Shown here: piece after piece, positions 39,249 to 41,725 of the stretch
How the letters are laid out: every line of letters begins with the position of its first letter
How positions within the stretch are numbered: position 1 is the first letter of the stretch
Assembly: GCA_963977015.1 (NCBI GenBank)
Contig: CAXBMO010000007.1
Span: forward strand, 32,001-96,000
From: an uncultured bacterium
GTDB lineage: Bacteria; Verrucomicrobiota; Verrucomicrobiia; Verrucomicrobiales; DEV007
Reading direction: 5' to 3'
Length of the DNA: 64,000 nucleotides
Program-made: the position numbers and the translations under genes
The notes under the pieces: generated by a model
Seen by the model: only the letters and a program-made list of their open reading frames with translations
What the model was told of the DNA's origin: nothing
Database searches by the model: none

Positions 39249-39557
39249 TTAAATCCCAAGCCCCGGAGGCAGTCCGCCCGTCACCTTGCCCATTTCGTCC
39301 GCCGCCATCTCTTTGCCCTGATCAATTGCCTGTTTCACACCACTCAAAATCAGATCTTCGAGCATTTCCACATCCTCGGGATCGACAACGGCAGGATCAA
39401 TCTTGATTGACAGGACTTCGCCTGCGCCATTGGCCTTTACGGTAATTTTTCCCCCGCCAACACTGGCTTCCACCTCACGGTCGGCCAGCTCCGCCTGAGT
39501 TTTTTGCAGATCCTTTTGCATCTTCTGCATCTGTTTCATCATCTTGTTGATGTTCAT
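39249..39557 (-). CDS. ybaB: Nucleoid-associated protein YbaB/EbfC
   Basis: MMKQMQKMQ, GGGKITV, IDP..VDPEDVEMLEDLI; downstream of dnaX. Confidence 0.95.
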   Translation of the reverse strand: MNINKMMKQMQKMQKDLQKTQAELADREVEASVGGGKITVKANGAGEVLSIKIDPAVVDPEDVEMLEDLILSGVKQAIDQGKEMAADEMGKVTGGLPPGLGI

Positions 39558-39598: not shown

Positions 39599-39817
39599 TT
39601 AGGCAACTTGAGCCTCGAAAATGCGCAGCGCCTCAGAAATCAGCGGGTCCTGAAAAAATGGGTTGGCAGACTCCATTGGAAGTTCGAGCTGGATGTCTTC
39701 CTCCTGATTCAGTTGCAGGGCAAGCGATTGTGGCTTTCCCAAAGGATCCGAATCAAAGGTAATCACATGCTGATCGGTAGCTTCGTTGAGTTGCTGGTGA
39801 GCGAGAAAAAGTTTCAT
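39599..39817 (-). CDS. Small protein with DnaX(tau) C-terminal-like motif
   Basis: 72-aa ORF filling the dnaX-ybaB gap; ends FQDPLISEALRIFEAQVA versus DnaX KNDPLIQEALRIFEAEVENTK. Confidence 0.75.
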   Translation of the reverse strand: MKLFLAHQQLNEATDQHVITFDSDPLGKPQSLALQLNQEEDIQLELPMESANPFFQDPLISEALRIFEAQVA

Positions 39818-39835
39818 GACCGGGTCGTTGCTAGG

Positions 39836-41725
39836 TTACTTGGTGTTTTCCACCTCAGCTTCAAATATACGAAGTGCTTCCTGAATTAAAGGATCATTCT
39901 TAAATTTCTGCTCATCAACCGGAGGTTCAGCTTCAACAATCTCGGGCTCCGTTGGTTCCTCGGGGGCAGGTTCCGGAGTTCGTTCCTTCTTGGGCGAAGA
40001 CTTTGGCTCCTGAATTCTCGGTGAAGCGGCAACGGCTTCGACGGCGGGCTCTTCGATTTCAGGAAGCTCGGGTTCGGGAATCGAGTCTCGAATTTCGCAC
40101 TGCAAAGTCATTTGGCTGCCACCATGCGCTTCGAGCAGTTCTTCGACGAACGTTTTGCTTTTCTCCCGCATCATCGAATCTCTGGCAAACCGGTTCCCCG
40201 GAGAGAAGCCAATGACGAAATTGCGTCCCGATTGCTCCAGAAATTGGACTCCTTTCGTCCACCCGGACATCAGCGGCCGCTGCGCGTCGATGGTTGCGGA
40301 TACCGCTTTCCAGAGGGCTTCACCACTGAGGTCTCCGGTCGGCACCGGGCCGGCCTTTCTTTCAGCCACGGGTTCGGGCTCGGGTTCGGATTCAGCTTTT
40401 GATGGTTTGGGCGGGTCCGGCTCAAAAGGCGGCGCATCCTCCATTGCCTCAGACTCAGCTGGTCCTTCAATTTTGACCTTCCCATTCGGCTTCTCCGTGG
40501 CCGAAGCCGGCGGACTATCGCTTACTGACTCCTTTTTTTTTACGGGGGCTTTTGAAGTTGGCGCAGCTTCCGTCGGCATTTGGGCGGCGCCATCACTGGC
40601 TTGGTGCAGCATTCCAATCACATCACTGATCGTCATCTCTGCCATGATTTGCATGGCCTTGATCACACCAATCTCAAGATGAAGCCGTTTGTTGGGCGCC
40701 CACTTCATCCTCGTTTCCGTCTCGGCAAAATGGTCGATCAAATTGAGCAATCTTTCCGGCACGGCCTGCTTGGTCTGGGCACGGATTCGATCTGCAATCT
40801 CCGGAGCCAGGTCGGCAAATTCGTTCTTCGGATCAACCAGGGAGATGAGAAGATTCCGCAAATAGCCAATCCAATCGGCCAACAACCGCGAAAGATCCTT
40901 CCCCTTTTCACTCTCGGCGTGAATCGATTCCAACGCGATGGCTGACTTCTTCGTGAGAATGGCGTCGGTCAGGTTGGCAATCGTTTCCAGCGAAGTGAAC
41001 CCGAAGATGTCGAGAACGTTCTCCTCCTTGATGTGCTTCCCGCAAAAGGCAACCAACTGGTCGAGCATGGACTGGGCATCGCGCATCCCGCCATCCGCAC
41101 CTTTGGCAATCGCGTAAGCCGCATTTTCATCGAGCTTGATCTTTTCCTTCTTGGCAATCAACAGAAGATGATCGGCAATGATCTGGGTCGGAATTCTTCG
41201 GAGATCGAAGCGCTGACACCGACTGATGATCGTCGGCAAAATTTTGTTGGGTTCCGTCGTCGCAAAGATGAACTTCACATGCGCAGGAGGTTCTTCGAGC
41301 GTCTTCAACAAAGCGTTGAACGCCGCAGTCGAGAGCATGTGAACCTCGTCAATGTAGTAGATCTTAAATTTGCTGCTGGAAGGCGCGAACTTCACGGTTT
41401 CGCGCAATTCGCGAACCTGCTCGACGCCATTGTTGGAGGCTCCGTCAATTTCCAGAACGTCCAGACTGATCCCCTCCGCGATTTCGCGGCAGAGCTCATG
41501 GTCCGGATCAAAATCCACCTTCGGTCCGTCCGGACAATTCAAGGCCTTCGCGAAAATTCGAGCCGTGGACGTTTTTCCCGTTCCCCGTGGACCGACAAAA
41601 AGATAGGCATGCGCCAAGCGGTCCTGCTCGATCGCGTTTCGCAGCGTACGTACGACGTGATCCTGACCCAGGACGTCGTCAAAGGTCTGGGGGCGATATT
41701 TTCGGGCAAAAACCTGATAACTCAC
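39836..41725 (-). CDS. dnaX: DNA polymerase III subunit gamma/tau
   Basis: ARKYRPQTF, GPRGTGKT, EIDGASN, IDEVHML, SRC motif, Pro/Glu-rich linker, C-terminal domain. Confidence 0.97.
   Translation of the reverse strand: MSYQVFARKYRPQTFDDVLGQDHVVRTLRNAIEQDRLAHAYLFVGPRGTGKTSTARIFAKALNCPDGPKVDFDPDHELCREIAEGISLDVLEIDGASNNGVEQVRELRETVKFAPSSSKFKIYYIDEVHMLSTAAFNALLKTLEEPPAHVKFIFATTEPNKILPTIISRCQRFDLRRIPTQIIADHLLLIAKKEKIKLDENAAYAIAKGADGGMRDAQSMLDQLVAFCGKHIKEENVLDIFGFTSLETIANLTDAILTKKSAIALESIHAESEKGKDLSRLLADWIGYLRNLLISLVDPKNEFADLAPEIADRIRAQTKQAVPERLLNLIDHFAETETRMKWAPNKRLHLEIGVIKAMQIMAEMTISDVIGMLHQASDGAAQMPTEAAPTSKAPVKKKESVSDSPPASATEKPNGKVKIEGPAESEAMEDAPPFEPDPPKPSKAESEPEPEPVAERKAGPVPTGDLSGEALWKAVSATIDAQRPLMSGWTKGVQFLEQSGRNFVIGFSPGNRFARDSMMREKSKTFVEELLEAHGGSQMTLQCEIRDSIPEPELPEIEEPAVEAVAASPRIQEPKSSPKKERTPEPAPEEPTEPEIVEAEPPVDEQKFKNDPLIQEALRIFEAEVENTK
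40533..40541 (-). other. Candidate programmed frameshift/slippage site in dnaX (A9 run ending in A-AAA-AAG)
   Basis: Minus strand GTA AAA AAA AAG GAG; the -1 and +1 frames both stop within a few codons. Confidence 0.6.

Follow-up and report, generated by a model that had tools for sequence, protein, structure and literature searches.

A conserved 72-codon open reading frame between dnaX and ybaB in a marine Verrucomicrobiales genus joins a copy of the DnaX tail to a putative clamp-binding motif

Gene content of the dnaX-ybaB locus

The window, by which we mean the entire stretch of 64,000 nucleotides that was analysed, carries on its minus strand dnaX, then an open reading frame (ORF) of 72 codons, and then ybaB. 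The features of this locus, with positions in the window, are the following.

39836..41725, minus strand: dnaX (tau, 629 aa), the donor of the tail, from the ORF list and Pfam
39851..39895, minus strand: DnaX tail DPLIQEALRIFEAEV, residues 611-625, conserved in DnaX of other genera of the order
39818..39835, minus strand: spacer of 18 nt from the dnaX stop to the ORF start, without a Shine-Dalgarno-like sequence
39599..39817, minus strand: ORF of the 72-aa microprotein, with an ATG start and a TAA stop at 39599-39601
39692..39817, minus strand: N-terminal part of the ORF, residues 1-42, with conserved M1, L3, A6, Q8, L10, F21, G27, P29 and E39
39674..39691, minus strand: QLELPM, residues 43-48, a hexapeptide of clamp-binding type by sequence pattern, of which QLELP is kept
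39605..39658, minus strand: tau-type tail FFQDPLISEALRIFEAQV, residues 54-71, followed by one Ala; 14/18 identical to DnaX 608-625
39249..39557, minus strand: ybaB (102 aa), the downstream gene of the likely operon (PF02575, E 1.9e-33)

DnaX matches the Pfam family DNA_pol3_delta2 (1.3e-41) and carries lid and gamma3 domains in addition, while YbaB matches YbaB_DNA_bd (1.9e-33). No Shine-Dalgarno-like sequence was found before either the ORF or ybaB. Because the minus strand lacks a terminator-like site from dnaX to ybaB and has a promoter-like site upstream of dnaX, we infer that the three genes, which look like one operon, are transcribed together. An earlier reading of the DNA, made from the letters and their translations (the sequence-only reading), had placed the ORF in the dnaX operon, and both the short spacer and the lack of a terminator-like site on that strand fit such a placement. 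In the window's own genome (G000) and in two others of the genus (G003 and G002) the spacer is 18 nt and the ORF continues the dnaX frame after one TAA. In a further genome of the genus (G001) the spacer measures 31 nt and the ORF is in another frame with respect to dnaX.

Conservation and selection

A total of 41 genomes was searched, the window's own and 40 relatives. A full-length, open version of the ORF is present in 4/4 genomes of the genus, each time between dnaX and ybaB. The orthologues are 79% (G003, E 3e-34), 54% (G001, E 1e-16) and 46% (G002, E 1e-15) identical to the ORF of the window, in assemblies with a completeness of 59%, 87% and 92%, respectively. An identical copy (100%) occurs on one marine metagenome contig. 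Together with the database proteins P0002 and P0003 there are six distinct ORF sequences, all six of which contain QLELP and the tail; the family alignment comprises five of them, P0002 having been checked apart from it. The sequence-only reading had made its proposal depend on the ORF being intact in close relatives and on QLELP being conserved. Within the genus both expectations held, the ORF being undisrupted in 3/3 congeneric genomes and QLELP and the tail being invariant.

Conservation is distributed in patches, consisting of scattered positions in the N-terminal part, Q43-L-E-L-P47, and D57-P-L-I-x-E-A-L-R-x-F-x-A, the last of which ends in the terminal Ala. In the family alignment QLELP and DPLI.EALR.F.A..A do not vary and their flanks do.

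Nei-Gojobori comparisons of the four orthologues gave saturated synonymous differences (pS 0.66-0.75) against pN values of 0.14-0.37, and pN for comparison was 0.02-0.125 in ybaB and 0.21-0.29 in the last 71 codons of dnaX. Between G000 and G003 the ORF differs at 16, 8 and 35 first, second and third codon positions. Because pS is saturated, pN is low and third positions are in excess, the frame bears the signature of a translated sequence under purifying selection. The claim that selection has acted on the protein, as opposed to a recent duplication of the DNA, is thereby borne out by the saturated synonymous sites, the low pN and the 16/8/35 differences. We regard the ORF with high confidence as a real protein-coding gene.

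Distribution

Outside the genus the ORF was not found in 37 genomes of other genera, where the best E values were no lower than 0.0025 and mostly came from the DnaX tails themselves. At seven loci of other genera, namely those where the search patterns found both dnaX and ybaB, ybaB follows dnaX at 5-325 nt and no tail-bearing ORF lies there; the 325 nt gap, in one of these genera (L015), is without a comparable ORF.

Larger collections were likewise searched. A word-indexed search of 5.8 billion proteins for sequences of 39-126 aa returned three matches, all within the clade. A profile search against 1.84 billion representatives returned seven matches at E<=1e-3, with a full-length match only in the family's own cluster, the other six being partial stretches of proteins of 703-2830 aa. 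Three relatives were confirmed among 87 pattern matches in 185,579 species genomes, and one among 125 in a JGI metagenome search; neither collection yielded a member from beyond the clade. None of the 22 candidates for longer, fused forms scored, which is weak evidence against such forms. No Pfam family matched the ORF at E<=1, and no family was found in NCBIfam or PHROGs, the sole NCBIfam match being HexR at chance level (E 0.093). The ESM Atlas contained unnamed or unrelated small-protein clusters only, with a pLDDT of 0.49 for the protein's own entry.

The gene is thus confined to one uncultured marine genus of Verrucomicrobiales and is not a general trait of dnaX operons. Restricted as it is to a single genus, it is not needed for replication in the Verrucomicrobiales at large.

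Origin of the C-terminal half from the dnaX 3' end

In a single BLASTP comparison of the ORF with DnaX, 14/18 residues were identical between the two C-termini (E 1e-6). Within the 15-residue core 13/15 residues are identical and 11 of those 13 are written with different codons, a common codon being used only for I and A, as the sequence-only reading had counted. At the DNA level 28/45 bases agree over the core and 32/54 across the 18 codons. A loose pattern for the tail, run against the 8,732 open frames of at least 120 aa (2.94 million residues) in the window's own genome, matches DnaX only.

The similarity extends beyond the tail core. When the ORF family was compared with the DnaX C-termini of 12 genomes using hhalign, only columns 46-72 were aligned, with a probability of 97 and E 8e-11, and tblastn paired ORF residues 36-71 with the 36 residues that end DnaX, at 49% identity (44-52% in the three relatives). 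Because of this hhalign and tblastn similarity, the C-terminal half of the ORF (residues ~36-72) is an old copy of the last ~36 dnaX codons. In the tblastn alignment IQLELPM stands opposite IVEAEPP, a DnaX segment conserved in the genus, which places the origin of the clamp-type motif in the copy, later than the duplication.

For the N-terminal half, similarity was found neither to the C-terminal region of DnaX nor to any family searched. It was considered whether this half derives, in shortened form, from the end of the DnaX globular domain, and the hhalign probability of 0.1 led us to reject this.

The ORF is not itself a DnaX, as it is without the AAA+ ATPase, the lid and domain III, all of which are present in the neighbouring DnaX. 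A folded domain V before the tail is missing as well, given that hhalign aligned tail columns only and that the AlphaFold2 (AF2) chain is mostly disordered. The AF2 model made with the family alignment has a mean pLDDT of 55.9 and helices only at residues 3-11 and 58-71; residues 12-57 have no secondary structure except isolated bridge residues (E) at 23 and 29. The microprotein is predicted by this model to be largely disordered. Its C-terminus has the sequence character of a tau tail, a terminal amphipathic helix with the pattern D..I......F.A.

The clamp-type motif

The positions that had been given for QLELPM (residues 43-48) are right, as are all other counts and coordinates of the earlier reading. 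QLELP is found in 5/5 aligned sequences and in P0002, followed by M or I at position 6, and is conserved in 6/6 distinct sequences while its flanks vary. The clamp-binding consensus is described as QLxLF (PMC4549789, PMC5397184), and the crystal structure of Hda with the clamp, as reported in PMC5397184, has Leu7, Leu9, Pro10 and Leu11 of QLSLPL in contact with the clamp cleft. The motif of the ORF follows the pattern Q-L-x-L-F or Q-L-x-L-x-L/F, with M/I instead of L/F at position 6. It lies in a flexible segment, residues 41-50 having a block-mean pLDDT of 54 in the AF2 model, which is a low-confidence model.

The Pol IV of the genus ends in GEQLELEI in 4/4 genomes. By sequence, QLELP[M/I] of the ORF thus has its QLEL core in common with the genus's own Pol IV C-terminus (QLELEI), where clamp-binding motifs classically lie, and the suggestion that the hexapeptide is of clamp-binding type gains its strongest new support from this likeness. 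In the same genome, QGSLF is found within DnaE1, where such a motif is expected, and QFQLF in an ImuB-like protein. The pattern QL.L.[LMIF] occurs 234 times in the 2.94 million residues of the window's own genome, equivalent to ~0.005 expected per 72 aa, a rough figure given that this pattern and QLxLx[LF] were chosen post hoc, after the sequence had been seen. We consider it somewhat more likely than not that the protein binds the clamp through QLELP.

Further motifs of the same kind were noticed elsewhere in the genome. An RNase HII (L038, G000:C11:64753-65382, minus strand; PF01351, E 5.7e-43) contains QLSLPF ~10 residues from its C-terminus, which is another candidate clamp-binding motif. 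Two open frames without a Pfam family (L036, G000:C2:379118-379675, 181 aa; L037, G000:C5:243390-243851, 152 aa) each have RQLELRFMN within a few residues of the C-terminus, and may encode paralogues with a C-terminal clamp-type motif.

The tail and Pol III alpha

Throughout the order DnaX keeps the tail F..DPLI..AL..F.A, which a disordered linker of ~90 residues separates from the globular C-domain. When the last 40 residues of E. coli K-12 tau were aligned with 12 tails using MAFFT, D621, I624 and F631 were kept in 13/13 sequences and A633 in nearly all, in an alignment that is forced and is not a statistical test. Queried with a DnaX C-terminal profile or with the last 34 residues, PDB sequence searches returned polyubiquitin repeats, a designed helical bundle and DnaA domain I, but not E. 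coli tau. Because these searches missed E. coli tau, homology of the tails across phyla rests on the forced alignment, and statistically the likeness of the ORF tail to that of E. coli tau is not secured.

The globular C-domain of DnaX (residues ~466-560; window ~40046-40330, minus strand) matched DnaA domain I in the same database (4tps_B, E 0.0019, profile 19-94) and gave no PDB match to E. coli tau domain V. Such a likeness to DnaA domain I would count against assuming alpha as the partner of the tail in this phylum.

Part of what is reported for E. coli points towards alpha. The substitutions F631I, L627P and L635P weaken the binding of tau to alpha, and low expression of free tau domain V is lethal (both Jergic et al. 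2007, PMC1888804). On the other side, alpha is bound less tightly by a tail peptide of 32 residues than by domain V as a whole (PMC1888804). Because of the E. coli tail alignment and the mutants described in that paper, alpha is the likely partner of the tail, with the caveats given above.

The DnaE1 of the genome (1179 aa) contains an OB fold and a C-terminal domain. Residues 940-1179 (71-row alignment) were modelled with the ORF (5-row alignment) using ESMFold2, giving a complex score of 0.32 (runs 0.30, 0.40 and 0.32) against 0.00 for the best of three controls, a result which the tool grades as 'weak support'. At least 47% of contacts are shared among the runs, and the partner pLDDT is 43 or more; the output named no interface. 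In calibration the mark was reached by 58/80 solved complexes and 2/110 mismatched pairs; scores of 0.60 or lower included only 7/80 solved complexes and both of the passing mismatches, and a pass at so low a score is wrong in the majority of cases, except where the pairing was a likely one beforehand. For the DnaE1-ORF pair, which was run with alignments of our own, these counts are approximate. Tau-alpha complexes have already been solved structurally, so the pass may in part be memory. The model gives a small push in favour of alpha binding. Taking the alignment and the model together, binding of the protein to DnaE1 through its tail seems to us, as with the clamp, the somewhat better supported expectation.

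Proposed role and alternative explanations

Because the protein carries both a copy of the DnaX tail and a motif of clamp-binding type, it probably acts at the replication machinery. The sequence-only reading had suggested a microprotein that bridges alpha and the clamp or competes with tau, and the reading that we prefer is of this kind: a disordered two-motif protein which would, as tether or competitor, touch Pol III alpha as well as the beta clamp. That both contacts occur is close to an even matter and leans slightly to the negative side, and we place the two-motif reading as a whole at much the same level. The protein would be made from the dnaX-ORF-ybaB messenger; its tail would occupy the tau site in the DnaE1 C-terminal domain, and QLELP[M/I] would enter a hydrophobic cleft of the DnaN dimer. 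In one outcome it would tether tau-free Pol III to the clamp; in the other it would compete, denying tau access to alpha and Pol IV access to the clamp. The data fit either alike. A competitor of tau that is co-expressed with tau would be physiologically awkward, which counts against the two-motif reading.

One of the two modules might do all of the work. If the protein were a clamp binder only, QLELP[M/I] would function as such and the tail would be kept for whatever the DnaX tail partners with in this phylum, which need not be alpha. The strong likeness to the Pol IV motif, the failure of the sequence searches to retrieve E. coli tau and the resemblance of the DnaX C-domain to DnaA domain I all speak for this alternative; the E. 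coli tail alignment, which keeps residues marked as important by the mutagenesis in PMC1888804, and the DnaE1 model (0.32 against 0.00 for the best control, with its calibration caveats) speak against it, and we hold it to be unlikely. Comparably unlikely, if not a shade more so, is the converse, a tau decoy whose tail competes with tau for alpha and whose QLELP is kept for folding or for another partner. The lethality of free tau domain V, which is dominant in E. coli (PMC1888804), would agree with a decoy and indicates that a free tail can act alone, and QLELP does stand opposite a segment, IVEAEPP, that is conserved in the DnaX of the genus. However, 4/7 of the aligned positions have changed towards the clamp consensus and were then frozen in 6/6 sequences, the motif has a chance expectation of ~0.005, and its QLEL core is identical to that of the genus's Pol IV.

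The remaining alternatives concern what kind of sequence the ORF is, and both are in our view very improbable. Readthrough of the TAA or a frameshift could extend DnaX at its C-terminus into a tau with two tails and a clamp motif, and in G000, G003 and G002, where the ORF shares the dnaX frame and is set apart by one TAA and 18 nt, the layout would permit this; dnaX is moreover a classic recoding gene in E. coli (the K-12 record lists a joined gamma product). TAA is usually the tightest stop codon, though, the frame and the 31 nt spacer of G001 do not allow for the same arrangement, and from G000 to G002 the spacer codons change, unlike the ATG and the residues after it, which are conserved; the absence of a fused form among longer proteins points the same way, as weak evidence. 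A relic or chance ORF, conserved by virtue of an overlapping nucleotide element, would agree with the confinement of the gene to one genus and with the nucleotide-level constraint seen at the adjacent dnaX 3' end. It is opposed by the saturation of synonymous sites with replacements held back in the ORF frame, by the third-position excess, and by the lack of an Rfam match or of a convincing consensus RNA structure.

Returning to the two-motif reading, we also entertain, more tentatively, a stronger version: a replisome subunit born in the dnaX operon, in which a duplicated tau tail gained a clamp motif de novo and became a bivalent linker of 72 residues. Such a linker would hold tau-free alpha at the second cleft of the beta ring, or evict tau and Pol IV. 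If true, this would be a dedicated polymerase-traffic factor of a type that is undescribed in any bacterium.

Relation to known systems

The tail of the ORF is a paralogue of the genome's own DnaX tail. It resembles the alpha-binding tail of E. coli tau (residues ~621-643; PMC1888804) in being an unstructured tail that turns into an amphipathic helix, and in the forced alignment it keeps D621, I624, F631 and A633. The ORF differs from E. coli tau in that it stands alone, without AAA+ modules or a globular domain V, and ends one residue after the helix. There is a likeness in arrangement to tauC16, the free tau domain V, in which the tau C-terminus is likewise off the clamp loader and which titrates alpha and is lethal at low expression (PMC1888804). 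However, tauC16 is a laboratory construct with a folded domain, whereas the ORF is a natural, conserved gene with the tail alone and a putative clamp motif.

As to the second module, the ORF has, like Hda (QLSLPL, PMC5397184) and Pol IV (QLELEI), a hexapeptide of the form Q-L-x-L-P/x-hydrophobic in a flexible segment; 4/6 positions match the motif of Hda, and the QLEL core matches that of the genus's Pol IV. In contrast to both, the motif of the ORF is internal, not terminal, and the protein, as a putative clamp binder, is without an enzymatic domain.

The epsilon proofreader is a small alpha-contacting protein with a clamp motif, and it stabilises Pol III on the clamp in E. coli. UmuD is a small protein that touches Pol III alpha as well as the clamp (PMC3384344). 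The logic proposed for the ORF is the same as for these two, a small protein in contact with alpha and beta that tunes the stability or exchange of polymerases on the clamp. There is no sequence relation to either, and the ORF would use a copy of tau's own contact. We know of no described factor that uses a copy of the alpha contact of tau.

Both modules are thus of kinds already known, an alpha-binding tail of tau and a clamp-binding motif. Their joining in a free-standing, conserved microprotein was not found described in the article texts searched, which dealt with tau, Hda, UmuD and phage Mu.

How polymerases are held, released and exchanged on the sliding clamp is still debated, and nearly all of the evidence comes from E. 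coli. The ORF has the appearance of a minimal two-motif tool assembled from the alpha contact of tau and a Pol IV-like clamp motif. Should the proposed binding hold, it would offer a ready-made probe for the tau-alpha and clamp-cleft interfaces. It would further be a clean case of gene birth, in which part of a gene is duplicated and then gains a short linear motif, and would recall that phyla differ in the make-up of their replisomes.

Constraint at the dnaX 3' end and other observations

Within the last ~24 codons of dnaX (window 39835-39907, minus strand), the 15 tail codons are nearly unchanged at synonymous sites in the four genomes that carry the ORF. Their GC3 is 0.07-0.40 in these genomes, against gene-wide values of 0.60-0.72 in the three with a complete dnaX; the dnaX value of G003, 0.44, was computed from the last 71 codons only. 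Over the 45 nt of the tail codons G000 and G003 do not differ at all, against a pS of ~0.6-0.75 elsewhere. In ten other genera the GC3 of the tail codons is mostly near the gene-wide value (0.53-0.93), with 0.40 and 0.20 in two of them (L012 and L013). The pattern points to a nucleotide-level constraint on the dnaX tail codons, perhaps for an unstructured, A/U-rich start region of the downstream ORF. Rfam gave no match above chance in the region of the dnaX end and the ORF, and RNAalifold, applied to 184 columns covering the end of dnaX and the start of the ORF, gave a weak consensus of -9.1 kcal/mol, without a convincing structure.

Two observations concern other polymerases. The window's own genome encodes an ImuB-like Y-family protein, with a weak IMS match and the QFQLF mentioned above, and a second DnaE-type polymerase (L030, G000:C8, and L023, G000:C17); the latter ends after the OB region and is without the C-terminal domain. 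These appear to be two parts of a mutasome of ImuB/DnaE2 type. In a neighbouring genus a Pol IV homologue (L034, G006:C2:111071-112015) contains two in-frame TGA codons within the match.
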